Below are positions 14,797 through 63,134 of a stretch of 64,000 nt of DNA, piece by piece. The notes below the pieces were generated by a model. That model saw nothing but the letters and a program-made list of their open reading frames with translations, searched no databases and was not told the origin of the DNA. The translations under genes were made by a program, and so were the position numbers. Source of the DNA: a virus; the IMG/VR virus record IMGVR_UViG_3300025674_000028, positions 9,230-73,229 of that record; one strand, given 5' to 3'. Each line of letters begins with the position of its first letter. Position 1 is the first letter of the stretch.

Positions 14797-17700
14797 CTAG
14801 TAGTCCCCTTGCTTGTTACGCGCCCCTCCTGCCTTTGATGCTCTGTTAAACTCAGCCGCATACGTCAACGCAGGGATTGGGTGCGTACTATGATAATTTG
14901 AAGTAGCGCCTGTTTGCGCTGCGTCTGTCAAGACTTGGCGGAGGTTGTTGTAGTTAAAGCGCGCTAAGAAGTCCTCCCGATACTCTCTCGGCGCGACGTC
15001 CACACCTCGCAGCAACGGCCGCACTGTCAGGTTTTTAAATGTCTTGTGAAGTTTCTTTGCTTGTGCTTCGGGAATCTTTTGACCGGGCAGCAGGTCTGCA
15101 CCGCCAGGATCTGCAACCTCGACAGTGCCAGTCATGGCACGAACCACCCCTTCAACATTTCGCCGCAGCACGCCCTTTTCCGCAAACAAGTTGCCAAGAC
15201 GATTTGTCAGGTAGCCGCGAACCTTCTCCATGTCACCCGTGGCGTCTAAGATTTCCTTTGGGTTTGCCAGGCCGTCAGTCAAAACGTCGCCCTTCCCTAT
15301 GCGTCTCCCCTTTTTGTAAAACCTCGGCGCATCGTACCCATCAGGAGCGTTGCGATTGCCGGGTAAAAAGATGGTAGGGTTGGGGGCGTTGCCGGCTGTC
15401 TGTATCTTCAAATCCCAGCCGCCTTTTTCGCGATTTCTCTTTATGGTGTCGACCTTACCTGCGACTGGAGACACCACTGCTTTTTGACCGCCCATGGTTC
15501 CTGGCATACGAAGCAACGCGCTTGCTTCTTGGAACAGGTTTTTCGCAGTGCTCGTGTCCCCTGGCTCGTAAACGCCGCCAGCGTGGAAGGTAGACAGCGT
15601 AAGCTGAGTGGATCTTTCACCGATGGCCTGCGAAGCCAAGATGCCGAAGTTGTTGCCGATAGGCAGCGTCTTGCCGTTGGGTAATGCACCGACGCACTTC
15701 TGACACACACCTTCTTCAGCTTCACAGGTGGCAGGCGAGCGTACCTTAATCTTGCCTTGCCCCTTTTGGCGCATGAAAGACAGCACATTGCCGTCTACCA
15801 GTCTGTTGCGGTTCCAGCTTTTGTTGCCACTCTTCACGGAGGACGCCAAAAAACGTCCTTCTAAGTCGTCTTCCGGACGGTTGATGTCCACGTCAACGCC
15901 AGATTTGGTTCCACAATCTTCGACGGTGACTGTCATGTCCATCGCTGTGTTAATCAGCTGCTTTGTAAGATAGCCAGGATCTTGAACCTCAATAACTTTT
16001 GACACTGTACCCATTCGAGCGCCGTGCAAAGTACCCCAGTAGCCCGTAGCGTCCAGTCCCTCGGTGTAGCTCTTCATAATCGGAGTGCCGACAACATCTC
16101 CCCGGCCATCCAGCACAGCGCCGGCGCCCATCATGACCTGTTGAAGCTGGACGGGCTTGACGCGAGCACCTGAAAAGGTCAACTCCGCGTTGACGTTGCT
16201 TCGCTGAGTTGGCTGACTTGTGATTCGACCCTTGAGGACATTCATGCCTCGTTTGTTGAGCTTACCTAGGACGTCGTCAAAAATGCCGCGGATTGCACGC
16301 TGGTGCTCGTTCTGAGTGCGACTTGTTGCCTTTGCAATCTGCAACTTCTTCAGCAACGTCTTTTCAGCCGCCTCACGTTCTTTTTTTAGAACTGGCTTGA
16401 AGTCTTCCATTAAAAGAGTCGTGCCCGTCAACGTTGCTTGCTCAGCTCCAAGCGTACGAAGCCTGTTGGCGGCTCCACCGAAGGCCTCTGGCGTCTTTAC
16501 CGCAATGTGAGTCGTCAGCTTTTTAATGTCCTTCTTTGACAGTCCGATGTCGCCATAATTCTGTGAAACGATGCCGGCTGATTGGAGAGAATCAAGCGTC
16601 ATGCCCGCAGGCAGCGCCTGGTTTACGAGCGATCGTCCAAGAGTTGTTCTCTGGCCGCCTACAGTAATCAAGTCATTGACGTCGATCTTGTCTTCAATAA
16701 ACGCTTTGCGAGCGTCACCAACCTTCGAAAAACTGCCGACAGGCTTCTTTTGCACGGGATTCCGAGTGATCCTGTTCAATCCAAGAATCGCCTCGTGACT
16801 CAACGTGTATGCCAGGTCTCCTGACGCTAGGCTAAAGAGGTTTGCTTGCGGTCTGAGCTTTTCCTTTAACTCTCTGTTAGCTGCTTTTGAGACTGGAGCG
16901 AACACCGCCATCGTGTCGCCGTCATTGTCAGCACCAAACCCTCCGTATACCAACGGGTTCAATTGTATGGTCTTCTCATCCGTCAGGCGAGTACGAAAGC
17001 CCTGGAAGCCGTACTTGTGCAACACGGGATCTCGCTTAAGAGCGACCCAATTAGTTTTGACAGTTCGTTCAAGAATGCGGTCAACTTCCTTGTCTTTCTT
17101 GCCGTCTGATGCGTATTCGCCAAGTGCTTTATTGAATCGTCTGAGCTTGTCCCTACCTACAGTTGTCTTCCATTGCGGGTGGCTTTTCTTGTATTCGGCT
17201 TCAAGCATTGGCCGATAGACTTTGACTGCCAGATTTCTCGGCAGTGCAATCTCGTCGATGTCCAAATCGCCATTTGGCCCAATGACAGTGCGGCCGCTGA
17301 GAACTTGACGTCGCTGCACCAGCGTCTTTTTCAACAGAGATTGCTTGAGATCTCCGACCTCCCTGCCGTTTGTGACGGGGCGACGCCCTGTGATTGTGCC
17401 GACGATGCCTTGATACTCAGCGCCGCTTAAAGGAGCACTACCTTCGGTCTGCATAAGCTGCAGCATGCCAGCGTACAAACCCGACTCAAGCTCTGAAATG
17501 ACCTTCTGCGGCAGTTTGCGCTTCTTTGCGTCCTTTAACTGCTCATCAATCATGGCAAGGTCACGATACAGGTAGTTCACGTCCCCAACGACAAAATCTC
17601 CGGAGTCCTTGTCGATTTTGAAGTCACGCATATTGGCAGGCAGTACAAGCACCTGCTTACGCATAAATGCTTCAGCTGGAGACAGTTTGTTGCGCTCAAG

Positions 17701-20700
17701 CATGTCTATAGTTTTGATTGTCCGGTAAGCGCTCGAACGCTTTGAGGCCTTCTTGTCATTCTTGGCGACGTCGTAGGCTTGCTTACGCACGCTTTTGAGG
17801 TCGACATTTTTGAGCATGTACTCTACGGCAGCAGCACCATATATCTCCTTGTCGCCGTCTTTGACTCCCTCAATGCCGGCCATAATGTTTTCGAACTGCT
17901 TCTTTTTCAGACCAAGTACGTCCCGGATTCCATTCTCGTACACTGGATTTGGGATGTTTTGTGAGAGCTCAAATCGAGACCAACGCTGACCTCCGCGACC
18001 TCCTGTCGCTTTGGGATCAAACAATCCACCCTTGTCTGGAGACATCGTACGTGCCGAAACAGTCCGAGTAGGACGCGCGATGACATTGTCCTGACCGTTG
18101 GTCTTGGACATAATCAGGACGTCACGGTCTGTTAAGGGCTTCATTCGAAGCTCGCTATGTTTAGCACTTCGCTCTACATCAATGCCCGCAGCTTTAAGGT
18201 AATTTTGGAACCGCACAAAAGCTCCGGGTACTCTACCTGGAGGCAAAGGCCGGCCGGCTGCCAGCGCATCCCACACTTCCGGGCGGTCTTCAGAACTGTA
18301 GAGCTGGGCAGAACGTAAAAACTCGCGTGCGTCCTGGGCAAGAAGACCGTAGGTTCCCAACTCACCGAGGCTTTGTGCGCCGTCTTTACCCTTACTGGCC
18401 AGTCCGGACTCTTGGAATGTGCCAACTCCGCGACCTTTGCTTTTGTGGTCAACTTGATGCTTAGCCTTGAGTATGTACTGATTCCCGACCCCGATGCTTT
18501 TAAGAGTCTTGCCTGATCGAGGGTCATACAAGTCCTCCCCGTCAGCGACGCCGGCCTCTTTCAGCTTTTGAGCAACAAAGTCCCAGTTCGACTCGTATTT
18601 GTAGTTCTCAACAATTTCAGGTGCGCCTGCTTTCTTTGCGATCTTACCTAAAAACGTCTCAAAGTTCTGGCTGGGGTTGATGCGTCCAGTCACCGCCGCA
18701 GGGTTATACAGAATCTCCAGGTGCTCGCCTGCACTGTTACGCGGCATTTCATCGTCAGGGACAATCTCAGCGATGGTTGCTTTGTTGGCGTGTCGGCCAT
18801 AAACCTTGTCGCCGACTTCCATAGGCTCGACAGTCTTTACGTAGACTTTAGCGCCGATGACGTTGCCATCGCGGTCACGTTCTTTTGCAACGTCTACAAC
18901 CTCGCCTCCATGACTGTGATCCCATCGTTTTTCAAAAAAACGACGCGCCCTCTTTGCGCCTCTACGGTCTTGAGTCTTGTAAAGCCCAACCTGCTTAGTC
19001 CGCTCCAACATCTCTTTGCCAGCAAGAGCGTCTGACTGATGTCCTACGAGGTAAAGGTCTCCAGGCTCTATGATCGTACCGACTTTGATGACTCCGTCGT
19101 CATCCAGCTTCGTATCGATGTCCGTTGGAAGTGGCGTACTGACTGTCTTGCGCCAAAACTTCTTACCAAGACGCATCGTATCGCTGGCGGCGCCTTCCTC
19201 ATACATATGAAGGCTTGCCATTTTGTCAGCGGCTGATTGGCTGACGGTGATTGAATCCTCAAAGGTGGATGTATGGTAAGGCAAATATGCCGTTTTCAGG
19301 TTCACGCCCATTGCCAGTACGCCGTCCTTTGTAAACGTACTGTCTGCCAACAGGTCACCCTTTTTGATTTCATCGCCGACCTTGACGGTCGGGGTAGAGT
19401 CGAGGGGGGCGCCACCGCCAAGCATCAGGTTTTTCGGCAGAGCAATTTGAACTGTCTTCCGCTTACCCTTTGGTAAAATCTCGATGTATCTCTCGCCCTT
19501 ATCCTTATCCACAATGCGCTTGACGACACCGTCGTAAGCGGAGCGTACAGCGCCTGCCTCTTCAGCAAGTAACGTCTCTGTGGAGTGAGTGACGCCGTCA
19601 AATTTGGTTTGCACTAACGGGGCTTCGCGGCGCAGCAGAGGCACAGATTGAGTCGTTTGCTTGTCGCTGTAGCCGATACGGCCGCCCTGAATGCTGTTTA
19701 CAAAGGGAATGAGCGCACTGTTGGTGTCGAAGAGGCTTGCACTGTCTTTGAGGTAGTATGCGACCTCTGACGGCTTTACACGAACAATCTCGCCATCTCT
19801 CCAACCCTTGACCATGCCTTGAGCATCGACTTTAGGCTTAAACTTGCCTCCGTCCTTGGTCCACTGATCAAATGCTCCAATGACTTTGCCGACCAGCTTA
19901 TCTGGACTGACGTCAACGCTGCGCCCTGATGGTGACAACATGTCGGCCATCAGCTTGCTGTGGCCGATATTTCGATCCGTCACGGATGAAGTATCTTTTA
20001 CGATCCTCGTGCGAATTGGCACATTTAGGATGACGCCGGCCCGACCCGACTCCGGCGTGTGGACAGGATCAAGAAATCCAACACTGCCAGGATTAAGTAA
20101 CTTGGCGTCTTTTGGAATGGCCATCTCCGCGCCAATTGCGCCCTCGCCCATGATGGTCGTCGAGGTGGCTTGTCCAAACGCGTCTAAAGGCGTCGTACTT
20201 GTATCTGTACGTTGCACCATGGACGTTGACGCTCGTCCTTTGATGTTTTTCTCAAAAGGACTGCCAATCAACTGATCAACTTTGATGGGAGTTTTGTTGT
20301 CAGTATATCGACGCAGACGTGATTCGATGCCCCTGACATACTTTCTAACAGTGGACTCACGTCCCACTGACTCCGCGAGCAAGTCAGCCGGACTGTAAAT
20401 TTTCTTCAGTGCAATCGACTCACGGTCATCCTCGGGTTCGCCGTTTGCGACTTGTTGAAGTCTGGAAAAACTGGCAAGCAACGTCTTTGCGCTTATGCGG
20501 TCTGACTTAGTGCCAAGTGTGACTGCCGTGATGGATGGGTCGACGCGGCTTGTGTTGAACTGATCTTTGAGTTGAGTAATGACTGCATCAAACTCGATGT
20601 CGTCTTTTTGCCTTTTGTACCGGGGGAAGACCTGACCGTACAGGTTTCGCATGGACTTCTCAAAACGCTCATCTGTACTCTGACTTATGATTGCCTTAGC

Positions 20701-21435
20701 GGTCTTTTTGCCTACGGCCTTTTCTAAGTCTTCGTTTTTAGCGCCGAGCAGCTTAGCGATGTCCCAGACCGGGATTGATTTGCTGCTCTTGTACAGCAGC
20801 TTAAAGTCAGGATCGTCACCCGTGCGGTCAAACAAGACTTTAAAGCTGCGCACGTTGCTTGATGTCGCCGGGTCAACGTTAAACTCAGTGACGATGTCGC
20901 CTGACTCGTTCGTGCGCGTAAATACACCAGGCTTACGACGCCACTGATGCATCATGAAGCGTTTTTTCCCGTCGACAATAAACGATCGGTCAAAGACCGG
21001 CGTCGGAATCTGACCAAGCTGCACTCTCTTGCTGCTGACCACCTTGCCTGTCTTGGTATCAACCACTTCAAAGTCACCAAAGGCGCGGACGCCATATGTC
21101 GACTTCACGCGGCCCTTTGGCTCTCGCAGCGTTTGATAGATTTTTTTGTAGTCTCTAGGGTCTGGGATGTCTGTGTGTTGGATGTCGCCCTTTAGTCTAA
21201 GACTGTACCTCCCGCCTTCAATCGGTTGATCGTAGGTCCGCTGCATCGCTTGCACGACCTCTTTCACCACAGTCTCTGCGGTCTCTGCGGGGTCAGGCAA
21301 GCTGCGAAAGGTTTCTAGAAATTCTTGACGCTGAGGGCTGACCGCTGTCGCTTCTGACAGCTTCTCTACAAATGACTGCTCTTCCGCATCCCACAATACT
21401 ACGTCGCTCTCAGGCGTATCTGGAAAGTCAGTCAT
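14797..21435 (-). CDS. rpoBC: DNA-directed RNA polymerase, fused beta-beta' single chain (2212 aa)
   Basis: Beta motifs: PVHTPESGRAG, GDKVYGRHANKA, NPAAVTGRINPSQ, YILKAKHQVDHK. Beta' motifs: KRDPVLHK, catalytic ADNDGD, GYLTKQL, EDCGT...RSPATC...CQKC, QAIGERSTQLTLSTFHAGG. Likely start ATG 21435 with GAGG SD, just after the portal stop. Confidence 0.95.
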   Translation of the reverse strand: MTDFPDTPESDVVLWDAEEQSFVEKLSEATAVSPQRQEFLETFRSLPDPAETAETVVKEVVQAMQRTYDQPIEGGRYSLRLKGDIQHTDIPDPRDYKKIYQTLREPKGRVKSTYGVRAFGDFEVVDTKTGKVVSSKRVQLGQIPTPVFDRSFIVDGKKRFMMHQWRRKPGVFTRTNESGDIVTEFNVDPATSSNVRSFKVLFDRTGDDPDFKLLYKSSKSIPVWDIAKLLGAKNEDLEKAVGKKTAKAIISQSTDERFEKSMRNLYGQVFPRYKRQKDDIEFDAVITQLKDQFNTSRVDPSITAVTLGTKSDRISAKTLLASFSRLQQVANGEPEDDRESIALKKIYSPADLLAESVGRESTVRKYVRGIESRLRRYTDNKTPIKVDQLIGSPFEKNIKGRASTSMVQRTDTSTTPLDAFGQATSTTIMGEGAIGAEMAIPKDAKLLNPGSVGFLDPVHTPESGRAGVILNVPIRTRIVKDTSSVTDRNIGHSKLMADMLSPSGRSVDVSPDKLVGKVIGAFDQWTKDGGKFKPKVDAQGMVKGWRDGEIVRVKPSEVAYYLKDSASLFDTNSALIPFVNSIQGGRIGYSDKQTTQSVPLLRREAPLVQTKFDGVTHSTETLLAEEAGAVRSAYDGVVKRIVDKDKGERYIEILPKGKRKTVQIALPKNLMLGGGAPLDSTPTVKVGDEIKKGDLLADSTFTKDGVLAMGVNLKTAYLPYHTSTFEDSITVSQSAADKMASLHMYEEGAASDTMRLGKKFWRKTVSTPLPTDIDTKLDDDGVIKVGTIIEPGDLYLVGHQSDALAGKEMLERTKQVGLYKTQDRRGAKRARRFFEKRWDHSHGGEVVDVAKERDRDGNVIGAKVYVKTVEPMEVGDKVYGRHANKATIAEIVPDDEMPRNSAGEHLEILYNPAAVTGRINPSQNFETFLGKIAKKAGAPEIVENYKYESNWDFVAQKLKEAGVADGEDLYDPRSGKTLKSIGVGNQYILKAKHQVDHKSKGRGVGTFQESGLASKGKDGAQSLGELGTYGLLAQDAREFLRSAQLYSSEDRPEVWDALAAGRPLPPGRVPGAFVRFQNYLKAAGIDVERSAKHSELRMKPLTDRDVLIMSKTNGQDNVIARPTRTVSARTMSPDKGGLFDPKATGGRGGQRWSRFELSQNIPNPVYENGIRDVLGLKKKQFENIMAGIEGVKDGDKEIYGAAAVEYMLKNVDLKSVRKQAYDVAKNDKKASKRSSAYRTIKTIDMLERNKLSPAEAFMRKQVLVLPANMRDFKIDKDSGDFVVGDVNYLYRDLAMIDEQLKDAKKRKLPQKVISELESGLYAGMLQLMQTEGSAPLSGAEYQGIVGTITGRRPVTNGREVGDLKQSLLKKTLVQRRQVLSGRTVIGPNGDLDIDEIALPRNLAVKVYRPMLEAEYKKSHPQWKTTVGRDKLRRFNKALGEYASDGKKDKEVDRILERTVKTNWVALKRDPVLHKYGFQGFRTRLTDEKTIQLNPLVYGGFGADNDGDTMAVFAPVSKAANRELKEKLRPQANLFSLASGDLAYTLSHEAILGLNRITRNPVQKKPVGSFSKVGDARKAFIEDKIDVNDLITVGGQRTTLGRSLVNQALPAGMTLDSLQSAGIVSQNYGDIGLSKKDIKKLTTHIAVKTPEAFGGAANRLRTLGAEQATLTGTTLLMEDFKPVLKKEREAAEKTLLKKLQIAKATSRTQNEHQRAIRGIFDDVLGKLNKRGMNVLKGRITSQPTQRSNVNAELTFSGARVKPVQLQQVMMGAGAVLDGRGDVVGTPIMKSYTEGLDATGYWGTLHGARMGTVSKVIEVQDPGYLTKQLINTAMDMTVTVEDCGTKSGVDVDINRPEDDLEGRFLASSVKSGNKSWNRNRLVDGNVLSFMRQKGQGKIKVRSPATCEAEEGVCQKCVGALPNGKTLPIGNNFGILASQAIGERSTQLTLSTFHAGGVYEPGDTSTAKNLFQEASALLRMPGTMGGQKAVVSPVAGKVDTIKRNREKGGWDLKIQTAGNAPNPTIFLPGNRNAPDGYDAPRFYKKGRRIGKGDVLTDGLANPKEILDATGDMEKVRGYLTNRLGNLFAEKGVLRRNVEGVVRAMTGTVEVADPGGADLLPGQKIPEAQAKKLHKTFKNLTVRPLLRGVDVAPREYREDFLARFNYNNLRQVLTDAAQTGATSNYHSTHPIPALTYAAEFNRASKAGGARNKQGDY

Positions 21436-21448
21436 GTTGTCCTCTTTG

Positions 21449-23719
21449 TTAGAAATTTGAGCCGTAGTCTCGAGTCTCTGCTCGGTTATGGCCCTTAGCG
21501 TAAACAGACCTTTCGCCCATGTATGCCTGGCCCATGTAAAGCTGAGATTGGACAGCAGTGGCGATATCCATGCCCATGTCATCCTGAATCTGCTGAATCA
21601 TACCAGGCCAGTGCATAGGGTCTACATTGCCAAACATTCTGACAAGCCGGGCAACATAATCACTGTCATCATCGTTAGAAGACGGTGAAGGCTCTGGAGT
21701 TGCGTTTGGGTCGTTTACAAAATCCCCCAGCAACATTTTCACAGCTTGTGGATCTACAGCATCCAGAGTCATCTGCGCACTTTGATCTGCTGCTGCTTGA
21801 GGAGCGACCATTTGAGGGATAGGCGTCTGCGGCGTCTCTGACTGTATTGCCCTGTTAGACAGTTGAGACACTTCCGCGCTGTTGGGTCCAAAGATAGACG
21901 CAGCGAGCTCAGGACTGGCCATGACATGCTGGTACATCTGCGGATCTGACCGAACGCGCTCAGCCAACTTCTTCGCCTCTTCCAGCATCGTCTCCTGGCC
22001 TTTAACTTGACCTTCGGCTTGCCCCATCGTCTGACGCAACATGATCTCCTGCTGCGTTCTGGCGTCAAGCTTCATGCGGTTGCGCTGCAACTCCATCTCA
22101 AACATGACATCTTCACGGATGTCTTGACGCTCAGATTCTGTGTCAATACGAAGCAAACGGTGAAGACGTCGTGTACCGACGGCATACTGGCCTTTGAGTG
22201 ATGCGATCATCTGAATAAAGGGCAAGTCCTGACCGAGTCGGAATTCGTCAAATTCAACAATGACGTCTGGCCACCCCATCACTTCACAAATCCTACGCAC
22301 GACCCACTTATTCATCGCCAATAGGTCTGCTCGATAGTCCTCCAGCTTTTTAATCATCTGCTGGATGCTGACGTCGCTTCCACTGTAAGACAAGCCGCCG
22401 AAGATAAACTCAATAGGACATTCAAGCGCTGCACACAGAATCTCCATGTACACTCTGATTTCAGACGACAACAGCAGCGCTTTACCATCCCCGCCTACCC
22501 TGGTCGAGGCTACAGGAAATGGCATGACGGGGCGGTAGTTTGGATCTTGCCTGTGCTGGGCCAACTCGCCTCGGATGACGTCCATGTAGTTTGCGACGTT
22601 GATCATCTCAAACAAGTTGCCACTTCGCGCCGAAGACTCTGGATAGACAATGTCTAGGGGGTAGATGTGCAGGTTACTGATCGATTCGCTGGCACGCTGA
22701 AGCTGCCGCATTTGCCAGTAGTCTTTGAGACTCGACAGGAATGCGGGCATGGGCAGGCCGTGCTTCGCAAACTCCAAGTGGACATTGCGCATCAGGTAAA
22801 ACTGGTCATCGCGCAACTTGACAAAGGGCTTGTCAGACATCCACCCGCCATATCGACGCAATCCCAGTGCTGCTTCAATGTATGCCTGAGGCTGGCGCAA
22901 GATAAACGCCCGATCCCCGTACTCCTTCGAGCGCAGCCGCTCAATGGTATGCGAGTCGATCTTTAAGTAGACATCGACATCGTCGCCAGCACCACTTTTG
23001 AGCGTATGGACCATGCTCATGTCTGGGACGCTCAGCTTCACGTCGTGCGGGGAACGGATGTAGCGATCCGTCACCATTTTTGGGCCTTTGCTACTGCAAT
23101 GTATGCAGCACGCCTCAAATCGTCCGTCTTCCTTCAATTCCCAGTCCGATTGATCAGCCCTAAAGGTCTTCGTGCAATCTGGACAGGTCAGCATCTTAAT
23201 GAAGGGGAAATGTATTTGGACGACACTGCTGCTGTACGTCCAAAACTGAACCCCCACGCGCTGATTAAACTTCTTAAGGCGCAAGTGATCGTCTAAGAGG
23301 GCCCGCACTCGATCAGTCAACGCATCCTCTGGCATTGCAAAGGAGTCAGTGCGTTCCTCACGGACCTTTTGACCTCTACGGGGTGTGTGCCGCTTACTCT
23401 TTATGACTGGATCAGTGGCGGGCAGGCACGCCATGTTTCGCACAAACGCTTTGTGGACAGGTGACCATATTGCCAGAAATTTACACAGCTTAAACATCTC
23501 CTGAGGGTCTTCAGGGATGGATAAGTTAGACAGGTCTGTAAAGGGCGAACTGCTGGGCACAAACCCGCCAACGGAAGCGGCACCAGACCCTACTGTCGGC
23601 GAAGCGTTGTAGCCATTGCTTACATACTCAGAAAGGCTATCATTCATGCCTCGAGGAGACAGTCCAGTGCGAGGCAGCCTGGGCTTGTTTAATGCGGGCG
23701 GTCCTACGATGTTTGCCAC
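21449..23719 (-). CDS. Probable portal protein with Zn-ribbon insertion
   Basis: 756 aa, mostly helical, with portal-like C-terminal ICAALECPIEFIFGGLSYSG and WPDVIVEFDEF segments, CPDC/CIHC insert, and Q-rich coiled tail; head-gene context. Confidence 0.6.
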   Translation of the reverse strand: MANIVGPPALNKPRLPRTGLSPRGMNDSLSEYVSNGYNASPTVGSGAASVGGFVPSSSPFTDLSNLSIPEDPQEMFKLCKFLAIWSPVHKAFVRNMACLPATDPVIKSKRHTPRRGQKVREERTDSFAMPEDALTDRVRALLDDHLRLKKFNQRVGVQFWTYSSSVVQIHFPFIKMLTCPDCTKTFRADQSDWELKEDGRFEACCIHCSSKGPKMVTDRYIRSPHDVKLSVPDMSMVHTLKSGAGDDVDVYLKIDSHTIERLRSKEYGDRAFILRQPQAYIEAALGLRRYGGWMSDKPFVKLRDDQFYLMRNVHLEFAKHGLPMPAFLSSLKDYWQMRQLQRASESISNLHIYPLDIVYPESSARSGNLFEMINVANYMDVIRGELAQHRQDPNYRPVMPFPVASTRVGGDGKALLLSSEIRVYMEILCAALECPIEFIFGGLSYSGSDVSIQQMIKKLEDYRADLLAMNKWVVRRICEVMGWPDVIVEFDEFRLGQDLPFIQMIASLKGQYAVGTRRLHRLLRIDTESERQDIREDVMFEMELQRNRMKLDARTQQEIMLRQTMGQAEGQVKGQETMLEEAKKLAERVRSDPQMYQHVMASPELAASIFGPNSAEVSQLSNRAIQSETPQTPIPQMVAPQAAADQSAQMTLDAVDPQAVKMLLGDFVNDPNATPEPSPSSNDDDSDYVARLVRMFGNVDPMHWPGMIQQIQDDMGMDIATAVQSQLYMGQAYMGERSVYAKGHNRAETRDYGSNF

Positions 23720-23723
23720 AATA

Positions 23724-24611: not shown

Positions 24612-24624
24612 GTTTTAGCGCTCC

Positions 24625-25863: not shown

Positions 25864-25942
25864 CGTTTTTTGGCTCCGAATTAGACGTCGTGCGGCAGCC
25901 CATCGCAGGCTTACAGATCAGTAGAGTACACGAAACTGTTTT

Positions 25943-25959
25943 TGGACATAAGACCATTG
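25943..25959 (+). promoter_or_regulatory. Candidate phage promoter Y-GGACATAAG-N5-YG, copy 2
   Basis: tGGACATAAGaccatTG in the divergent intergenic region, 52 nt before the first gene of the plus-strand block; followed by an 8-bp hairpin at 25963-25984. Confidence 0.75.
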
Positions 25960-26011
25960 ACCGCACACGCCGACCTGCGTGTGCACTTTGTAAACCACAG
26001 AGGAGAAGACA

Positions 26012-26782: not shown

Positions 26783-26793
26783 CATTCCTGACA

Positions 26794-54706: not shown

Positions 54707-54714
54707 GATTGCTC

Positions 54715-55497: not shown

Positions 55498-55853
55498 GCA
55501 TCCTCTTGCGTCAGAAGAAGCTGCTGCTCTTCAAGGCTGTCTAGGAGTATTACACCGAAGCTCTCAGGGTCATCGAGCATCATCTCCATCTGATCGATCA
55601 GCCCTTCACGCAACTCGATCATATCTCCGATGGAGACGACGGTGCGCCGATTGCCGTAATCATCCAACACGGTAGGCAAATCAGGCCTTTGATTGTTGGT
55701 CAGATCCGCAAGAACACGAACGCGAGCCGCTTCTAAGTCAAAGCGCTCCAAGTCACCCGCAGCCGCCCTTTGAGCCAGCCAGTTATTGGCGTCAGCAAGG
55801 CGATCAAAGATGTCAAAGCGCCTTTGAATATTTTGTTGTGTTTGGTTGCTCAT
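55494..55853 (-). CDS. Hypothetical helical protein
   Basis: 119 aa; ATGA overlaps on both sides. Confidence 0.65.
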   Translation of the reverse strand: MSNQTQQNIQRRFDIFDRLADANNWLAQRAAAGDLERFDLEAARVRVLADLTNNQRPDLPTVLDDYGNRRTVVSIGDMIELREGLIDQMEMMLDDPESFGVILLDSLEEQQLLLTQEDA

Positions 55854-58800
55854 TGGCCGCCTTCAATTGGAGACACCCTGCGACGGCTCAAAGATGACAT
55901 GAGGTCGTCTACCCTGTCCATAAGGTCCGTCGCTCCTTGGGATAACCACCCAGGATCTATCCAGTCCTCAAACTCTGATTCTAACAGAGCGTCAGCTGCT
56001 TTATCATGTCCTTGTGATTTTAAACGCGACGCAGCATCCACGATCCTGTTCCTGGACGGGGCAACAGGGTATCCCAGGTATTGGTCAAGCGATTCTAGGT
56101 ATCGGTATAAGCTGCGTACTTCTCGCCAGGCATTGCTAAGAACGCTCTCAAAAAGGGTAACAGTCCCACTTAGAGAAGTAGGGACTGGCCGGGAAAACGT
56201 GACTGTGACAACGGTTGGGGCCGCGTCATCATCAATCGTCGCAGTCTGTATGCGTATGGGTGGGTCTGGCTCATCGCCAACGCTGAAGACGACGTCACAC
56301 CCCTCTAACCGACTGACGCCTGGCGTACCGACGACAGTCAGCGTCCCGCCGCGCCTATCGCTGTTGACTGTCAGCGTGAGTCCAGCCTGGGAAGCTAATG
56401 CCCTGCGCGGCCGACCGAGCGTCGCTCTTGCACGCCCGATTTCGTCAAAGAGCTCGTTTAGGTCAGGCGTAATTCGTCTTTCCAGCCGATACTCCATCAA
56501 TGCGTAGGGCGGGTAAGACGGACTGCCGCCCGTCGTCAATGGACCTCGAACACTTCCACGCAGTTGAGTGCTTGTCCTAACTGACACTTCGCCGGTCGTA
56601 GCAGGCAGGAGAAGCGCAGGAATGCCGATACGCACTTTCTTTATGATGTCATAAACCAGCGATCCACCTGCGGGAAATTCTCCCAAAGGGTCACCGTCTA
56701 GGCCTACCCATAACTCTCGAAGATTTAACAAGCCATCATAGCCGTCGGACCTGATCCGAACGGCAAATTGCGCGTCGATAGGGCTCGATGGCAGTGGCCG
56801 ATTCAAACTGGTCGTGATGATATTATAGAGGCCGACCATCGACGCGGAATGCACTCTACCTCCAGCACGCAGAAACCACCGTACAGGAATGACGCTGCCG
56901 GGGTCTTGCGTAATGCTTTTGGCAAGTTGGTAGCGGAACCGACGCTCGATAGCGTCAAGATCAACCAAATCTTCGCTGTCGCTCTCGACAACCTCAAAGC
57001 GCCGTGTCGTCGCCGAGTCAGAGCACAGAGCCACAGGGCCGCGGTAGTACACACCGTCCACTAAGTCTACGCCTATACCAGTCAGTGGCTTCACTTTGAG
57101 GTATGCGCTGCCGCCGATAAACTCTACAGACTCAAATTTCCATGTTCCAGTTTCAGCCTCAGTGTCGGACAACAATACGAATCGATCTCCGCGTCCGCTG
57201 TGACGTGTCCGGTGACCCTCCACTGTCTCGCCGTCAGCTAGTGTGATGGCTGGAACGATGTACGCGATGTGACCGTTTGTCGCCCATACAGTAATACGGC
57301 GCCCATCACTCAACGTAATTCGATCTCCAGGCGCTATGTCGAGGGCAAGATTCGTGAAGCCGCGCCAAGGGCTCAGTGCGCTGACCTCCAGCGTCGTGCA
57401 GGCATCTGGGTCTTGAATTGACCCTGCTTGCATTTGAAGAGTCCAGTCAACTGTAGAGTCTATATTCGTGTCCAAAATGACGTAGAAGTCCCCGTCAGAT
57501 ACAAAATCAGCACTGGCTGCTTCCAGCGTATGACCTGTCCGTATGCCGCTTTCCAAAGCACGTACAGAAATTGGCGGATTGACTCCACTTCGATCTACCA
57601 GCCGCAATGGGCGTTGCGCCAGTGCCGATGTCAAGCTGTTCGCATAGGATGCGCTTACAGGCATATCGAGAACGACGGTATCGGTCACTCCTGCCGCGAC
57701 ACGGTCTCGATACAAAACAGCTGATCCGCTCCACGCTCGCCCTCCATATGGGTCTGTAGATGGTATGGTACTCGACAAGGATGCAGACGTTACAACACCA
57801 TCAGTGCCAAGTGCCGACACTTGACGATCATACGCACTGGAAAATAATGGACTGTAGTAACTATCATACGGAGCATTCAGACGCAGATTGACGCGGATGC
57901 CTGACGTCGCAGGGTTAACGTAATCAAAGCTAGTTAAAGGGAAGCCAAAATCTACAGCTTGCCAGACGTTGAGTTGGGGAGTTGCTACGGGAGGTGTGGC
58001 TGAATTTGCCAGTCCTTCCAGCCATCCGCCCATTGCGGTGCGATTCGGGTATAGGTCTGACTGTATTTCCAGTAGCCTGTAAACGCCCGGCACATTCGTA
58101 AATTCGATGGGAATGGGGGCTACATTGGCGATAAGAAGTCTGTCGGACCCATCAGCCCCCCATACAACATAATCGCCAATTGAAGGCGGCACTGAGGGTT
58201 CTTCAATCAAGACGTTGTATGTGCCCACGGTCTTGTACGCTGTTGCGTAATAAAGGCTGTGATTCGACGGTGTCAGTTGGTCGATGACGTTGTGATGCAT
58301 GACGTAGACAGGCAAGTCAGTGCCATCTATTTGATGCAGCGGGGTCGCCGATGCGGTCTCTACGAGCACCTTATTGACTGGGTTGACTTGAACGACATCG
58401 ACCCACCCAGCCTTAAACTGTGAGGGGGTGATGCTTACGCCCTGTTCAAACCAAGTAGGGTGATCCCAGCCGCCGTCACTGCGAATACATGTTTCTAGAT
58501 ATTGCTTGTCTCCATCGACAGACAAGCGTGCAGGAAAGGTGCGCCGTCCTTTAATCTTCTCGGGAATTGGACGTAACCGGACATCCAAAGTCTTTGCATC
58601 CGGCTTGCTCCTAATGCTGACGTCAGGACTTCTTAACTCTCCAAAAGGTGTGACGACAGACAACAAGCGGTCCATGATCTCAATTGCAAGAACTGTGTGG
58701 ATCAGAGTCTCATCGACGGGCCCATCATTTGGTCCAAGTTTGCGTATGCCTTCAATGTCCAAGGACAGGTCTGCATCAAAGCTTTCAAGCATGCGCCGAA

Positions 58801-59419
58801 GGGCAAACTCCCGCCAGTCCACCGACTGATATCGTGAGGGTAAAGACAAAAGGTCGTCGATCTGGGTTTCTAATGCTCGGATGTCGTCTCGAAAGTTTGA
58901 AAGGGCTTGAGGTGACGGCAGGCTTGCCGCGAGGGTATCGGGCAGCGCCTTGAGCTCCGCCAAGTACTGGGCAGCGAGCCTTGCCTGATTTAGGATTCCA
59001 GTATGCACTTCCTCTGTGACAGACGAGCGTGCAAAACGGCCTTGCCTGACTAAATCTTGAAGCGCGGTCAGACGGGACAAGTCAATTTCTTCTCTGAGCG
59101 ACAAGCTGCTGGGTGACCATCTGAGCAAGCCGTTTTTACCGTCAAACAGCGCGTCTGTCTTTTCTATCGCCTGTGCAACCGCTGAGCGCACCTTCTGAAT
59201 ACGAAGGCTCGCAGCTTCGTAGTATGCCTCTGGCTCTAATGCCATCAGTCCTGCGATAAAACCCATTTCGCGCGCGATGGTCGGGTTACCCACTGCCGCA
59301 TCTGCCATTTGTGCGCCCAGTGCGATAAGCTCGTTGTGCTGCGCTCCGACATATACTTGTGCGCGGTCACGCAATATTTTACTGGCTAGAGTAAAAGCGT
59401 CTTGACGGTCGTCGCTCAC
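55850..59419 (-). CDS. Large putative tail/baseplate protein
   Basis: 1189 aa; helical ends and beta-rich middle; within the baseplate operon. Confidence 0.55.
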   Translation of the reverse strand: MSDDRQDAFTLASKILRDRAQVYVGAQHNELIALGAQMADAAVGNPTIAREMGFIAGLMALEPEAYYEAASLRIQKVRSAVAQAIEKTDALFDGKNGLLRWSPSSLSLREEIDLSRLTALQDLVRQGRFARSSVTEEVHTGILNQARLAAQYLAELKALPDTLAASLPSPQALSNFRDDIRALETQIDDLLSLPSRYQSVDWREFALRRMLESFDADLSLDIEGIRKLGPNDGPVDETLIHTVLAIEIMDRLLSVVTPFGELRSPDVSIRSKPDAKTLDVRLRPIPEKIKGRRTFPARLSVDGDKQYLETCIRSDGGWDHPTWFEQGVSITPSQFKAGWVDVVQVNPVNKVLVETASATPLHQIDGTDLPVYVMHHNVIDQLTPSNHSLYYATAYKTVGTYNVLIEEPSVPPSIGDYVVWGADGSDRLLIANVAPIPIEFTNVPGVYRLLEIQSDLYPNRTAMGGWLEGLANSATPPVATPQLNVWQAVDFGFPLTSFDYVNPATSGIRVNLRLNAPYDSYYSPLFSSAYDRQVSALGTDGVVTSASLSSTIPSTDPYGGRAWSGSAVLYRDRVAAGVTDTVVLDMPVSASYANSLTSALAQRPLRLVDRSGVNPPISVRALESGIRTGHTLEAASADFVSDGDFYVILDTNIDSTVDWTLQMQAGSIQDPDACTTLEVSALSPWRGFTNLALDIAPGDRITLSDGRRITVWATNGHIAYIVPAITLADGETVEGHRTRHSGRGDRFVLLSDTEAETGTWKFESVEFIGGSAYLKVKPLTGIGVDLVDGVYYRGPVALCSDSATTRRFEVVESDSEDLVDLDAIERRFRYQLAKSITQDPGSVIPVRWFLRAGGRVHSASMVGLYNIITTSLNRPLPSSPIDAQFAVRIRSDGYDGLLNLRELWVGLDGDPLGEFPAGGSLVYDIIKKVRIGIPALLLPATTGEVSVRTSTQLRGSVRGPLTTGGSPSYPPYALMEYRLERRITPDLNELFDEIGRARATLGRPRRALASQAGLTLTVNSDRRGGTLTVVGTPGVSRLEGCDVVFSVGDEPDPPIRIQTATIDDDAAPTVVTVTFSRPVPTSLSGTVTLFESVLSNAWREVRSLYRYLESLDQYLGYPVAPSRNRIVDAASRLKSQGHDKAADALLESEFEDWIDPGWLSQGATDLMDRVDDLMSSLSRRRVSPIEGGQ

Positions 59420-60384
59420 GGCTCACCTGCTTGCTTCTTTGGGACGTGCTTGGCTCTACATGAACGACAATATGACTGCCTGCGGTAAACAGTATTTCCG
59501 CTGACCACCTTTGTTCGTCTGAAACCAAACAACTCGCTGACCTGCACGACTCCTTTGGCCTTTACGCCACACGTCGGGCAGTGTCCTGTTGTCACTCGAA
59601 TTCCATTGATGCGGACATCGAGCAAATGGTCAACCGTCTCAGCGTCCAGCGGCTTAATTTCTTCAACATGCCGTTCATGTCTCGCTGTAGGAGTTTCATC
59701 AGGACGTACTAAGTGTAACCACATGCGTGCCGCGCGAGCGTCAACGCCACATATCTCACAACAACTCTCAAAGGTCATGTAGGATTGGTTGCCGATAACC
59801 TCGAAGGGTGCAGTGCCAGGGCCTTGCGGATAGTAAGGGACATCTGATGCAGTCGGCCTGATGAGACGTTCTGCACTTATATCGACCTCTTCATACAGAC
59901 TTGAGGGCGTCGTTGACCACTTGCTGACTTCCCCGCATATGATGCCAGGGATTCCGTCGTCGGGATTGTCGAGAACCTTTTGTGTGAGTAGAAACGGGTG
60001 ATTGTTGATCCACCAGTAAGCGTTGATGGCCTGACGCTGATCTCCGCTTAAAGGAGACACCACACCGCAGGCGTAGTCTAAGAACGCCCGCCGTATGACT
60101 CCGGCGTAAAGACCTCGTTCGCTGTACTCAGTTTCTACCGACGGCTCTGCCCAGGCTTGAAAGGGCCTTGGCTTGCTGAAGATGTACGCAATGCGTTCCT
60201 CGCGCTTGAGGGCCCGCACGTCTTTTACGCTTTGAGAACGAGACGGTAAGACAGGGGGAGGCTTGTACGATGGACGCCCAAGTAGTACAGACCAACGAGC
60301 CGTAATGTCGCCCAGAACTTGATTGATCTGAGATGCGTTCCAGTACCAAGTCGGATTTCTGCCTATCCATCGAGTCCTGTTCAC
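59416..60384 (-). CDS. Hypothetical protein with C-terminal zinc finger
   Basis: CPTCG...LFGFR...QSYCRSCR, plus AGVIRRAFLDY...TFESCCEICGVD; start codon uncertain. Confidence 0.65.
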   Translation of the reverse strand: MNRTRWIGRNPTWYWNASQINQVLGDITARWSVLLGRPSYKPPPVLPSRSQSVKDVRALKREERIAYIFSKPRPFQAWAEPSVETEYSERGLYAGVIRRAFLDYACGVVSPLSGDQRQAINAYWWINNHPFLLTQKVLDNPDDGIPGIICGEVSKWSTTPSSLYEEVDISAERLIRPTASDVPYYPQGPGTAPFEVIGNQSYMTFESCCEICGVDARAARMWLHLVRPDETPTARHERHVEEIKPLDAETVDHLLDVRINGIRVTTGHCPTCGVKAKGVVQVSELFGFRRTKVVSGNTVYRRQSYCRSCRAKHVPKKQAGEP

Positions 60385-60465
60385 CGCATCTTCTCTACAA
60401 CTTGGCGCTGCCTACTGGCGGATAGGCTTTGTCTTTATCATGTCTTGCCGGAATCTTAATCTACG

Positions 60466-61155
60466 TCAAACAAACCTGACCGCCAAATCAACGGGCAGAG
60501 TAATATCGAAATCTGACTCAGGAATCAGGATGACAGGCAATGCGCTGTCATCAATCTCAAAGGGGTCGTCGACATTCTGAGTCACGACCGTCACATCGCC
60601 AGGGTTTGGCTGTGTGATGGCCAGAGCCTGCCCTTCGACCACGGTGTAGCCGGGGTTTGGAGTCGCTGAGAGTGCGTCGGAGGTGAAGGCCGTGACACGT
60701 CCATCGCTGTACTTTACGCGAAGGGCAATGTTAATCGTCTCACCTGCGTTGAGCTCGACGTGCAACATGCCGCCATCGTGGTGATATGACAAGTCAGGGT
60801 AGGTGACCGTCCCATCAACTCCGACAGACAATTCACTCCAGTCAATCTCTGAGGGTCGTGGGTAGAGATAGTCTGCCAGCCTCCCATGAGTTTCTGTCGG
60901 CACCAGCATGCGTACAGGGTCGTCCTCGCCGGGCAGGAAAACATCAAAGCAGACGCCCTGCATTAAGTTAATGACAAAGGTGCCGTCCTTAGCAGTGTAG
61001 GCTGAAATGGCATGAGGGCCTGGTGCCAGCTTATTCTGAAATAACACACCGCCAGAGCCGGGCACCCCAATGTATTCCGCGCGCAAGTGCGCAAAAGACA
61101 GTGCTGTGCCGTCCAGATTTATAAGTGTGCCGCTTAATGCGCAGGTCGTTCCCAT
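60466..61155 (-). CDS. Ig-like / beta-sandwich virion protein
   Basis: CALSGTLINLDG...YTAKDGTFVINL pattern; GGAGG SD. Confidence 0.55.
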   Translation of the reverse strand: MGTTCALSGTLINLDGTALSFAHLRAEYIGVPGSGGVLFQNKLAPGPHAISAYTAKDGTFVINLMQGVCFDVFLPGEDDPVRMLVPTETHGRLADYLYPRPSEIDWSELSVGVDGTVTYPDLSYHHDGGMLHVELNAGETINIALRVKYSDGRVTAFTSDALSATPNPGYTVVEGQALAITQPNPGDVTVVTQNVDDPFEIDDSALPVILIPESDFDITLPVDLAVRFV

Positions 61156-61859
61156 CAGCTGCCTCCAATGAGGTCGTATGGTGCGCTGCTGCGGTTGGCG
61201 TCAATCAGCGTTGTGACCTCTGCGTCCAATCCAGCGGCAGGCGTTGTAAAGTAGGGCTGCCCAGCGATGTTAGGCATATCGACTCGGTACAATGACTCAG
61301 GAGTCAGCAATGCCTCCCACCTGCCATTGCGGTCGATGGCGTAATTCAATGCCTCGCGAGTGTGCAGCGTTGCAGCTTCACCTGGGATGTCGGCTGAGAT
61401 GCGCCACACGCGTACAGTACGATCATACTCAGTGTTCGTCCCAAACTGCGTCTTCTCAACCACCCCAAAGCCCGCAGCCCTACGGTTGACAGTGCCTCCA
61501 GGGACATCTAGTCCAACCCAACCATAAACCCTGCAAAACCCTGCTGAACTTTGCTCTGTCGCAGTAGAGGCCCCGGTGGCAACCAAATCAATGACACGAG
61601 GTGTCAGCGCGGTCGGACCATCATCTGCGTTGACAGTGATTGTCGTCGGGAACGCAAAAACATGCCCATCTGCCCGTGCCCACAACGTGTATGTTCCGGG
61701 CTCTAAGCTAATCACAGTGATTTCAAGATGGTTGACCAGAGCGCCAAACGCCTCAGTCAGCAAAATCTGGTTTTGATCGTCGATGACCGTCACGACGACC
61801 TTGCCAATGTCACTGTTGGTTGCGGTCTTAGGTGCAAATGAGATGTATTCGGCCATCAC
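61155..61859 (-). CDS. Ig-like / beta-sandwich virion protein
   Basis: LEPGTYTLWARADG and CRVYG...DRNGRWEALL; resembles the downstream neighbour. Confidence 0.55.
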   Translation of the reverse strand: MMAEYISFAPKTATNSDIGKVVVTVIDDQNQILLTEAFGALVNHLEITVISLEPGTYTLWARADGHVFAFPTTITVNADDGPTALTPRVIDLVATGASTATEQSSAGFCRVYGWVGLDVPGGTVNRRAAGFGVVEKTQFGTNTEYDRTVRVWRISADIPGEAATLHTREALNYAIDRNGRWEALLTPESLYRVDMPNIAGQPYFTTPAAGLDAEVTTLIDANRSSAPYDLIGGS

Positions 61860-62081: not shown

Positions 62082-63134
62082 TCAAAAACCCAGGATGCGC
62101 AGCTCGTCTTGAATGTCTTGACGAAGCTGACGTTTGATCACGCTCATCTGAGATTCGGTCACGTTGAACTTCTTTGCGAGTTTTGCATTGGACGCAATGT
62201 GCTCCGCACCGTCTAGGCCGAAGATGTGGTTAATGACCTTGGTCTTCTTTGGGCCCTGGTAGTCACGCACTCTGCGGATTGCCATCATGGTGCTGCGTTC
62301 AATATCGACATCATGCTCAGCGTCAAGCTTCTTGCTACCAAGCAAGTCGCCCCGGCTTTCCTGAAGAATGAGCTTGATGTCTTTCACAGTCATCTCGCCA
62401 GGCATCATCTTTTTCTGGATGTCTTCCGCAGAGGGGACGTAGCCTTTCTCGTACTCGATTTGTTTTGCTACCTGAAGGGTTCGTTCAGTTTTCGCAGCAC
62501 GAGTACGTTCTGGCCTGCCAAACTGCGCCATCTGTCGCATATCTCTGTTGATGTTCTGTTTGTAGTTGCTTTTGTAGAAAGTCCTGATGTTCGCTTTCTT
62601 CTCTGGATTCCAGTTGTCGATGGCCTTTTTGAAGTTGTTGTACACGACGCCCTCAATGGCAGGCTTAGGCAATCTGTACTGCACATTGAGGCCATAGACT
62701 TGCTGGCTCAGGAAGTTCTTGTTGCGAGCATACAGCGACTCCAGAGCGTCCATGTCGTTAGACTTCTGGTAGCGATTTAGCAGGTCTGTTTCAGTTTCGT
62801 TTTCACTGGCTGAATCATTCCATGTGACGGGCCGAGAGACGAATTGAAACGAACTGGGGTTGACCAGTGCGCTGTCTGCTGGCCTATCAAAGTCTCTGTC
62901 GCTGTCACCGAACTCTACAGCCGGCAGCTGGGGCGCGTCGATGATCGTAAATTCGTGGTCATCGTCTTCGTCATCTTCTGCGTCTTGCGCCGCCCGGCCA
63001 AAGAAGTTTAAGAACGTCTTGCGAGGCGCGGACACCTTTGCATGTCCAAAGGGCTGTATTGAACGCACTTCCCCCCGCATCTCGTCTTCAAGCTCTGACA
63101 GCTTTGCAAACGCATCTTGGAGGTTGAAGGTCAC
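62082..63134 (-). CDS. Sigma70-family RNA polymerase sigma factor with acidic N-terminal extension
   Basis: Region 2-like KAIDNWNPEKKANIRTF, region 3-like GYVPSAEDIQ, region 4 HTH-like IFGLDG...SNAKLAKKFNVTESQMSVIK; TAAGGAG SD and GTG start. Confidence 0.85.
   Translation of the reverse strand: MTFNLQDAFAKLSELEDEMRGEVRSIQPFGHAKVSAPRKTFLNFFGRAAQDAEDDEDDDHEFTIIDAPQLPAVEFGDSDRDFDRPADSALVNPSSFQFVSRPVTWNDSASENETETDLLNRYQKSNDMDALESLYARNKNFLSQQVYGLNVQYRLPKPAIEGVVYNNFKKAIDNWNPEKKANIRTFYKSNYKQNINRDMRQMAQFGRPERTRAAKTERTLQVAKQIEYEKGYVPSAEDIQKKMMPGEMTVKDIKLILQESRGDLLGSKKLDAEHDVDIERSTMMAIRRVRDYQGPKKTKVINHIFGLDGAEHIASNAKLAKKFNVTESQMSVIKRQLRQDIQDELRILGF

Follow-up and report, generated by a model that had tools for sequence, protein, structure and literature searches.

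A fused beta-beta' RNA polymerase and a divergent sigma70-family factor as a probable particle-borne transcription enzyme of an uncultured myovirus-like phage

Can a tailed phage deliver to its host a bacterial-type RNA polymerase (RNAP) together with the initiation factor that directs it? The question is raised by a 64,000-nucleotide (nt) stretch of viral DNA, hereafter the window, which comprises bases 9230-73229 of the 73,229-base IMG/VR virus record IMGVR_UViG_3300025674_000028 (G000) and encodes a fused RNAP in its head module and a sigma70-like protein in its tail module. A first-pass annotation of the window proposed that the two proteins are packaged as a holoenzyme, clipped by the head protease at K-x-S sites and ejected for the transcription of early genes. 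The window is a piece of a roughly 180-kb uncultured myovirus-like phage (CheckV completeness of the record is ~40%, and end repeats are absent). The analyses presented here indicate that the virus particle probably carries both RNAP and sigma, which would initiate transcription once inside the host. The proteins concerned, with lengths in amino acids (aa), and their N-terminal extensions are located as follows:

14797..21435, minus strand: fused beta-beta' RNAP, 2212 aa (Pfam and NCBIfam)
21340..21435, minus strand: acidic 32-residue N-terminal extension of the RNAP, with K25-L-S27 (alignment of 11 homologs)
62082..63134, minus strand: sigma70-family factor, 350 aa, with sigma2-sigma3-sigma4 from about residue 110 (profile and fold searches)
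62787..63134, minus strand: disordered acidic N-terminal extension of the sigma factor, residues 1-116, with K33-V-S35-A (confidence of the AF2 model and family alignment)

The program-listed open reading frame (ORF) of the RNAP spans 14797..21582, and its first 49 codons overlap the upstream gene; this overlap, together with the ribosome site AAAGAGG that precedes the ATG at 21435, places the gene at 14797-21435, so that the start codon and the Pfam and NCBIfam domains agree with the fused RNAP as first annotated. Beta domains come first in the chain and beta' domains follow, with Pfam matches to Rpb2_6 (E = 7.3e-39; 134.4 bits against a cut-off of 23.4), Rpb1_5 (6.2e-22; 78.8 against 28.5) and Rpb1_2 (8e-21; 75.4 against 25.3). 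NCBIfam models of fused beta/beta' chains match far under their cut-off (410 bits vs 5372). The catalytic A-D-N-D-G-D occupies residues 1502-1507, and all of 11 homologs retain D1503, D1505 and D1507.

The core enzyme consists of one beta-beta' chain without alpha or omega. Searches of the record, itself a fragment, of the related fragments G003 and G005 and of two complete genomes, those of Salmonella phage Arash and Vibrio phage D69, found neither alpha (PF01193) nor omega (PF01192), with positive controls in 14/14 genomes, which extends to relatives the first-pass remark that neither subunit is visible in the window. A database search with the RNAP scored 8000 candidates and returned 337 proteins at E<=1e-10. 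The first 51 relatives listed are all fused (1992-2954 aa) and metagenomic, on contigs of up to 184 kb, from which it follows that one-chain RNAPs are common in uncultured phages; fused bacterial rpoBC forms are present among the distant relatives. Among 50,697 phage records, the best RNAP holders are Vibrio phages D69, D181 and D148 and Salmonella phage Arash, at ~28% identity, and in Arash and D69 the enzyme is divided between two genes of ~1525 and ~606 aa. Some fused homologs are 500-700 aa longer than the others (P0155, P0156, P0159, P0160, P0178, P0183, P0187, P0201 and P0204). LAGLIDADG or intein-splicing domains occur in five of these nine (P0160, P0178, P0183, P0187 and P0201) and other endonuclease domains in P0204; in D181 and D148 a homing endonuclease lies beneath the RNAP match.

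The sigma factor is far less conspicuous to family models. Against Pfam the ORF matched no sigma model at E<=10, its sole match being PAS_7 at 0.14, and in NCBIfam FliA_WhiG reached 9e-4 with 19 bits vs a cut-off of 189.6, and sigma70-ECF 8.2 bits vs 42.9. A four-sequence family profile searched against PDB gave nine matches, all to RpoD/SigA (best E 0.0016), in which residues 168-334 align collinearly from region 2.3-2.4 through region 4. The AF2 model has a mean predicted local distance difference test score (pLDDT) of 59.6; it is helical from about residue 110 and disordered over residues 18-102, where pLDDT is below 50. Foldseek with this model returned 41 PDB matches at E<=0.001 (best 2.2e-6), those listed being sigma70-family chains, with TM-scores that are low (0.16-0.24) because the domains differ in arrangement. 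The family profile collects 163 cluster representatives at E<=0.001; 40 of these were aligned, and conservation is strongest in R-[LI]-P-x-P-A-[IV]-x-G (residues 154-162), here R-L-P-K-P-A-I-E-G. By the measure of these sensitive profile and fold methods, which alone recovered the sigma70-like gene of the first-pass annotation where Pfam cut-offs missed it, ORF 62082-63134 is a dedicated, divergent sigma70-family protein. Scans of IMG/VR with profiles A2 and A5 returned no relative of it, a tblastn search with P0001 against the 50,697 phage records gave no match, and a scan of metagenome contigs yielded only an identical copy (L012) and one relative at 41% identity (L013).

Joint tracing of RNAP, sigma and an associated DNA motif across related genomes had been suggested at the outset, and for the two proteins it gave a positive answer. 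A 40-sequence sigma profile (A4) detects Arash gp10 at 1.7e-33, a D69 protein at 6e-24 and a protein of the 119.7-kb IMG/VR record G005 at 2.6e-45; all three genomes also carry the RNAP, and both genes are therefore found together in two complete relatives, Arash and D69. Full-length relatives of gp10 occur, among the 50,697 phage records, only in Arash and Vibrio phages D69, D181 and D148, and these four gp10-bearing phages are the four best RNAP holders. The sigma P0004 and the RNAP P0155 have the same listed longest contig of 113,566 bases, which suggests that the two lie on one contig.

A complex predicted for RNAP residues 700-1420 and sigma residues 105-350 obtained a score of 0.73, where the highest of three controls had 0.00; this mark is reached by 58/80 solved complexes and 2/110 mismatched pairs, the runs share at least 39% of contacts, and the partner pLDDT is at least 69. 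In the prediction, sigma residues 154-173 (the LPxPA helix) touch RNAP residues 1273-1342, where the beta' clamp helices are expected, and the sigma C-terminal domain contacts RNAP residues 802-835 in the flap region. The structural test that had been envisaged for the pair thus beats its controls, but sigma-core complexes are well represented among solved structures, so the pass may reflect likeness to solved holoenzymes rather than binding; and since the interface is the textbook one, the prediction does not separate the phage core from a host core.

Both genes are located among virion genes. The RNAP gene sits within the head-morphogenesis module, with the portal gene directly before it:

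21449..23719, minus strand: portal, 756 aa, immediately preceding the RNAP (tblastn matches: Arash gp204, 1e-30; D69, 9e-41)

The portal-then-RNAP order of the window recurs in Arash, D69 and four of five IMG/VR loci (L007, L008, L010 and L011; in the exception, L009, a portal was not seen within the 10-kb flank), and this adjacency is conserved although the RNAPs of the relatives are only 25-49% identical. The RNAP had initially been placed between a portal and a spike gene: tblastn supports the portal, and for the putative spike the searches of 11 head-module ORFs gave no family match. The sigma gene heads a seven-gene block that ends in a baseplate gene, an order kept in L013 at 38-55% identity (41% for sigma), and the Baseplate_J-like gene seven genes after sigma bears out the earlier placement of sigma among tail genes. 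In Arash, gp10, which falls in the window's sigma family by the sigma profile, is likewise located among genes annotated as structural.

Arash also provides particle data. In the portion of the Arash report covered here (PMC10585845), mass spectrometry of particles lists Gp206 (beta) with 3516 spectra, the highest count, Gp216 (beta') with 1210 and the sigma Gp10 with 467 at 100% coverage; the second Arash sigma, gp196, is absent from the portion of the proteome table covered. Computed per residue, the listed spectra amount to ~2.3 for beta, ~2.0 for beta' and ~2.0 for sigma, with ~1.5 for the portal and ~4.3 for the capsid protein. The first-pass statement that no characterised packaged pair of a beta/beta' core and a sigma factor is known needs softening in view of this listing: within the covered part of the report, the Arash pair stands in print, yet it has not been characterised, and the literature searched contained no functional study of this enzyme class. 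The DNA helicase Arash gp217 (L003 26067-27485), encoded beside the gene for the C-terminal part of beta', is listed in the same covered portion with 1148 spectra in particles; its spectra per residue are similar to those of the RNAP subunits, and it may be a further partner.

A second line of evidence is the tripeptide K-x-S. All 400 X.Y patterns were scanned in each of 47 window proteins, and K.S is the top pattern in two proteins of the head module:

24625..25863, minus strand: 412-aa head-module protein, candidate scaffold/core, with 10 K-x-S, eight of them followed by A or S
5802..8243, minus strand: 813-aa head-module protein, candidate internal/ejected protein, with 14 K-x-S

These give the two lowest p-values of the whole pattern table (10 vs 1.89 expected, p 2.9e-5, and 14 vs 4.8 expected, p 4.7e-4) and, pooled, 24 K.S vs 6.7 expected (P 1.8e-7), most of the sites reading K-x-S-[A/S]; the control patterns S.K, R.S, K.T, K.A, K.G and E.S are not enriched in the two proteins. 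The L008 positional counterpart of ORF 24625-25863, two genes before the portal, has 8 K.S vs 1.48 expected, and three further ORFs with K.S clusters (9, 4 and 7 sites) are located at the left end of the record, outside the window. K.A takes first place instead in L010 and L011, which are more distant, both in the homologs of ORF 5802-8243 (18 vs 4.64 and 11 vs 2.36) and in an ORF before the portal (19 vs 5.31 and 10 vs 1.65):

L010 3485-5185 and 18173-20125: K-x-A-rich counterparts
L011 4780-5946 and 20539-22509: K-x-A-rich counterparts

This replacement of K-x-S by K-x-A in relatives suggests a lineage-specific shift of the site.

The same tripeptide recurs in the extensions of the two transcription proteins. 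The conserved RNAP core begins at S-P-Q, and in 9 of the 11 closest homologs it is preceded by a variable extension, 26-66 residues long; K-x-S is present in 8/9 of these extensions vs 0.64 expected by shuffles, and in 30/39 sigma-family extensions vs 11.2 expected, where it mostly falls within residues 6-36, frequently with F or W as the next residue. In 200,000 simulations each, none reached 8 and none reached 30, counts that overstate independence, as the family members are kin to one another. The extensions of RNAP and sigma appear to co-vary, both being present in the window phage and in the P0155/P0004 pair and both absent in Arash, D69 and G005. Of the K-x-S tag in the first-pass annotation, the presence at the named places and the excess over chance stand; within sigma, HAKVS is conserved and FAKLS is not. 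The whole pattern resembles that of T4, with a short site repeated in core proteins and placed near the N-terminus of putative cargo. The candidate protease is one of the three K.S-cluster ORFs at the left end of the record, outside the window (L002 2-1156, minus strand; weak match to phrog_18299, head maturation protease, E 0.0066), and phmmer against PDB gave a chance-level match only. This ORF has the N-terminus M-E-K-W-V-K-L-S and six K-x-S in its C-terminal third; it may be a protease with self-cut tails.

The third element is the DNA motif. GGACATAAG occurs in five exact copies in the window vs 0.28 expected (0/100 shuffles reached five), and all five fit the frame Y-GGACATAAG-N5-YG, vs 0.05 expected:

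25943..25959, plus strand: T-GGACATAAG-ACCAT-TG, intergenic between divergent genes and 59 nt ahead of the ATG at 26012
28764..28780, plus strand: copy within ORF 28435-29214, in the orientation of the replication genes
31752..31768, plus strand: copy within the primase gene, ~300 nt upstream of the gene starting at 32060
37191..37207, plus strand: copy 166 nt before the PD-(D/E)XK nuclease gene starting at 37367
1317..1333, plus strand: copy antisense in the 5' region of the terminase gene, 47 nt before ORF 1374-1985 (plus strand)

With three further copies beyond the window, of which two are minus-strand, the whole record has eight on both strands, all eight in the Y...N5-YG frame, and none of a reversed control pattern; the enrichment is in exact copies only, the one-mismatch count being at chance (9 vs 9.64 expected). 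All eight point toward non-structural genes and none into a structural gene. Four are intergenic, 14-143 nt before non-structural genes that include the first gene of the plus-strand module and a 400-aa ORF followed by a pentapeptide-repeat gene; three are within plus-strand genes, with 166-467 nt to the following start. L008 has one copy at the syntenic divergent intergenic site, 88 nt before the K.S-rich ORF (81 nt in the window). No sigma70 consensus promoter was found in the intergenic regions that bear motif copies, and the extended motif had no match in IMG/VR.

Bacterial promoters show the same -10-to-start spacing and the same pyrimidine/G start preference as the motif frame. On this analogy CATAAG would be a -10-like element at -12 to -7, N5 would span -6 to -2, and the pyrimidine and the G would fall at -1 and +1; CATAAG shares with TATAAT its four central bases, among them the A at -11. 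GGACATAAG resembles a phage-specific promoter in its behaviour. Where the first-pass annotation called the motif non-sigma70-like, CATAAG-N5-YG is arguably sigma70-like, and where it saw the motif before opposite-strand replication genes only, the copies precede non-structural genes more widely and are on both strands, one of them antisense in the terminase gene. A k-mer survey of the DNA was swamped by the pentapeptide-repeat gene. That gene (L002 5662-6462, outside the window) encodes a 266-aa protein (Pfam 3.3e-74) in an early-looking region, downstream of a minus-strand motif copy; as pentapeptide-repeat proteins are able to imitate DNA, it may act against the host. A perfect 8-bp hairpin, GCACACGC, 6-nt loop, GCGTGTGC, is found at 25963-25984, ~5 nt after the predicted start of the 25944 copy.

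The best reading of these data, to which we assign a probability of about one half, is delivery of the transcription enzyme from the particle. RNAP and sigma would be made alongside the head and tail genes and form a holoenzyme, with the LPxPA helix on the beta' clamp helices and the sigma C-terminal domain on the beta flap. Their acidic, K-x-S-containing N-terminal extensions would bring both proteins into the prohead, the same site being repeated in head-core proteins, and the prohead protease would trim them at K-x-S, as happens in T4 at L/I-x-E sites and capsid-targeting sequences. The holoenzyme would then be ejected with the DNA and start the early and replication genes at Y-GGACATAAG-N5-YG, an extended -10-like element with the start at G. 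Of the packaged holoenzyme first proposed, the co-occurrence of RNAP and sigma, the shared K-x-S and the motif stand as observations, from which packaging, cleavage and ejection are what we infer.

Several points weigh against this reading. Packaging, clipping and promoter use in the window's phage are themselves deductions. The sigmas of Arash, D69 and G005 and the distant RNAPs lack a K-x-S extension, the distant RNAP group having neither an N-terminal extension nor a conserved N-terminal K-x-A, and, as the Arash proteins lack it, the tag is unnecessary for whatever puts them in particles. Ten more K-x-S sites lie inside the mature RNAP, the whole RNAP and sigma are not enriched in K-x-S (13 vs 13.0 expected), and avoidance of K-x-S was not seen in other virion proteins (28 vs 24.4 expected). 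The protease is weakly identified, as its phrog_18299 match and the pLDDT of 34.6 of its AF2 model indicate. Four of the eight GGACATAAG copies are inside ORFs, and the 9-mer, traced through relatives, is not enriched in them (one copy in G003, none in G005, none in G004, one in Arash). Sigma profile A4 has no member in G003 (55% complete) or G004 (22% complete), both of which are fragments, and a narrower sigma profile has none in any of five related fragments. Finally, the 116 Arash particle proteins include ribonucleotide reductases and RNA ligases, and the authors say, in the part of the report covered, that abundant enzymes may be carry-over (PMC10585845).

The main rival, which we consider unlikely and nevertheless the strongest competitor, is a non-virion phage polymerase. 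The enzyme would be made after infection and serve middle or late genes, host RNAP or another enzyme would read the first genes, the portal adjacency would reflect co-expression, and the extensions would be regulatory, acting in sigma-1.1-like autoinhibition or in turnover. In its favour are the obvious non-structural enzymes in the covered portion of the 116-protein Arash particle list (PMC10585845), the resemblance in charge of the acidic, disordered sigma N-terminus to region 1.1, and the relatives that have no extension. It fits poorly with a portal-RNAP adjacency kept at 25-49% RNAP identity, with an Arash beta that tops the spectral counts in the listed part of the proteome at per-residue values alike for beta, beta' and sigma, with a K-x-S common to the multi-site head-module proteins, and with early-looking genes before which a sigma70-type promoter was not seen.

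Two parts of the proposed mechanism might also be read separately, GGACATAAG as a regulator binding site or a replication/DNA-processing signal and K-x-S as a binding or modification motif unrelated to proteolysis; we regard this as improbable. The intragenic position of half of the copies is in its favour, and RNA pieces show nothing on transcript starts: eight pieces of 151-261 nt from metatranscriptome X20 match at 100% identity, one of them beginning 9 nt past the predicted start 25959 and another spanning the copy at 37192 from upstream, but such contigs cannot show starts and may derive from DNA, and they were not used as evidence. Against a non-promoter role, the orientation always fits downstream non-structural genes on both strands, the spacing to the conserved YG suits -10-to-start geometry, and a copy is kept at the syntenic divergent intergenic site in L008; against a role outside proteolysis, the multi-site enrichment is confined to equivalent head-module proteins, and the S-to-A lineage switch suits protease specificity. 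Least probable of all is that sigma redirects the host core RNAP, like T4 gp55 or SPO1 gp28, with the fused RNAP using another, unrecognised initiation factor, like the phiKZ/AR9 non-virion RNAPs, since this usual case for phage sigmas (for jumbo phages without an RNAP, according to the covered part of a 2026 review, PMC13282480), which the predicted complex accommodates equally well, sits badly with a sigma subfamily found among isolates only together with a phage RNAP, with a core-binding helix that bears the family-specific LPxPA signature instead of the bacterial motif, and with the joint detection of beta, beta' and sigma in Arash particles in the portion of the proteome covered (PMC10585845).

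Comparison with known systems narrows what is distinctive. Arash, D69, D181 and D148 share with the window a homologous RNAP, portal and terminase, the same portal-RNAP order, and the sigma family, located in the structural block. Arash and D69 differ in their split RNAP (~1525 and ~606 aa vs one chain of 2212 aa here, at ~28% identity), in a sigma of 234-255 aa, in the lack of K-x-S extensions on both proteins and, for Arash, in a genome not enriched in GGACATAAG. To our knowledge, none of the known virion RNAPs (N4, crAss-like, phiKZ/AR9) works with a sigma70-family factor. The N4 virion RNAP, a giant single chain of T7-like single-subunit fold that is packaged and then ejected to transcribe early genes, has no sigma70-family factor. 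The crAss-like enzyme, in the sources as covered, is likewise one giant polypeptide that travels in the particle and is ejected for early transcription; it differs in being a highly divergent two-barrel protein without a sigma70-family factor. The fused rpoBC of Helicobacter, Wolbachia and some candidate phyla forms one chain as here, but it is cellular and works with alpha and omega.

Phages of the phiKZ type differ in having an additional RNAP of the non-virion kind and a protease that cleaves after S/A/G-x-E. According to the portions of the literature covered, this protease cuts after a glutamyl residue (PMC9026906), and the virion RNAPs of phiKZ, AR9 and SPN3US are, as here, of multisubunit type without alpha or omega; theirs are packaged in the head and ejected for early genes (PMC5105663, PMC13282480), as is proposed for the present pair. 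For SPN3US, the covered part of the report proposes that the N-terminal part of beta targets the virion RNAP into the head (PMC5105663). The phiKZ-type enzyme further differs in its 4-5 polypeptides and in the lack of a sigma homolog (PMC13282480, in the part covered). The T4 gp21 system, as described in the covered text (PMC9026906), parallels the pattern seen here in its three-residue site, its multiply cut core proteins and its internal proteins with removable N-terminal targeting peptides; it differs in the L/I-x-E site and in the absence of a packaged RNAP or sigma, and the corresponding cleavage here is a prediction. Like the window, the mReC lineage of metagenomic tailed phages has deep-branching beta and beta' genes (Weinheimer and Aylward 2020, PMC7481178), but the covered portion of that paper reports for it a T4-type major capsid protein (PF07068) and a large terminase of PF03237, unlike the GpA-like large terminase here (GpA_ATPase, phrog_675); the words 'sigma', 'virion' and 'packaged' do not occur in that portion (PMC7481178). 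What distinguishes the present system among virion RNAPs is, on the best reading, a true sigma70-family partner combined with a one-chain core, the Arash precedent being descriptive only.

If the proposed mechanism is correct, this would be the first sigma-dependent virion RNA polymerase, and a packaged core with sigma would add a third way of transcribing early genes independently of the host. With two polypeptides and no alpha scaffold, it would rank as the smallest known holoenzyme of bacterial type and would bear on beta/beta' assembly and on the passage of a 250-kDa enzyme through a tail. It is tempting, and somewhat short of an even bet, to extend the idea to a large, mostly uncultured clade that delivers a two-protein bacterial-type holoenzyme from its capsid, with a K-x-S/A code, a co-evolving protease and a GGACATAAG-N5-YG promoter without a -35 element. 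Should K-x-S/A prove to be both a protease and a targeting code, it would explain the choice of cargo. The 2026 review of jumbo phages describes, in the part covered, phage multisubunit RNAPs without homologs of alpha, sigma or omega (PMC13282480). The Arash precedent reduces the novelty that the first-pass annotation assumed, although the published Arash proteome, in its covered part, only lists proteins (PMC10585845). With cultured relatives at hand, Arash on Salmonella and D69 on Vibrio, several predictions are open to bench testing now.

The window as a whole falls into three strand blocks of genes, 2-25863 (minus), 26012-40711 (plus) and 40689-64000 (minus); most ORFs outside recognisable families had no match in Pfam or PHROG. 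Other features are:

2..1447, minus strand: large terminase, extending past the window, 637 aa in the full record
23724..24611, minus strand: conserved 295-aa ORF adjoining the portal, without family assignment, with homologs beside the portal in L007 and L008
26012..40711, plus strand: replication module with DnaG-type primase, family A DNA polymerase and PD-(D/E)XK nuclease (Pfam and PHROG matches)
51491..61859, minus strand: tail/baseplate block downstream of sigma (Pfam and PHROG matches)
51491-54706, minus strand: Baseplate_J-like gene, seven genes past sigma

The terminase matches phrog_675 at 6.4e-25 and Arash gp1 at 2e-28 by tblastn; its GpA_ATPase score in Pfam, 25.5 bits, is slightly below the cut-off of 25.6. 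Within the head module, the 295-aa ORF 23724..24611 had no match in family, PDB and Atlas searches, two ORFs upstream of the portal had best scores of 0.77-0.79 in the ESM Atlas, below a meaningful level, and neither 11 head-module ORFs searched against Pfam at E<=10 nor two searched against PDB by phmmer gave anything usable. No major capsid protein was recognised in the 73-kb fragment; ORF 4585-5871 was considered as a candidate and dropped, its sole homolog being itself. The 203-aa ORF 1374-1985 on the plus strand precisely occupies the sole gap in the minus-strand late genes, from the terminase to ORF 1982-2608; it is preceded by a motif copy and has no Pfam match at E<=0.01. At the other end, tandem DNA repeats of ~40-48 nt fill window positions 63749-64000 inside the ORF just upstream of sigma, and, as the record terminates within them, the assembly probably broke at the repeat. 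The identical sigma gene mentioned above lies on a 5.3-kb contig (L012) from another metagenome, and the aquatic run X3 contains contigs of at least 99% identity in all 30 bins of 22000-41900, from which it follows that the phage recurs in more than one sample.

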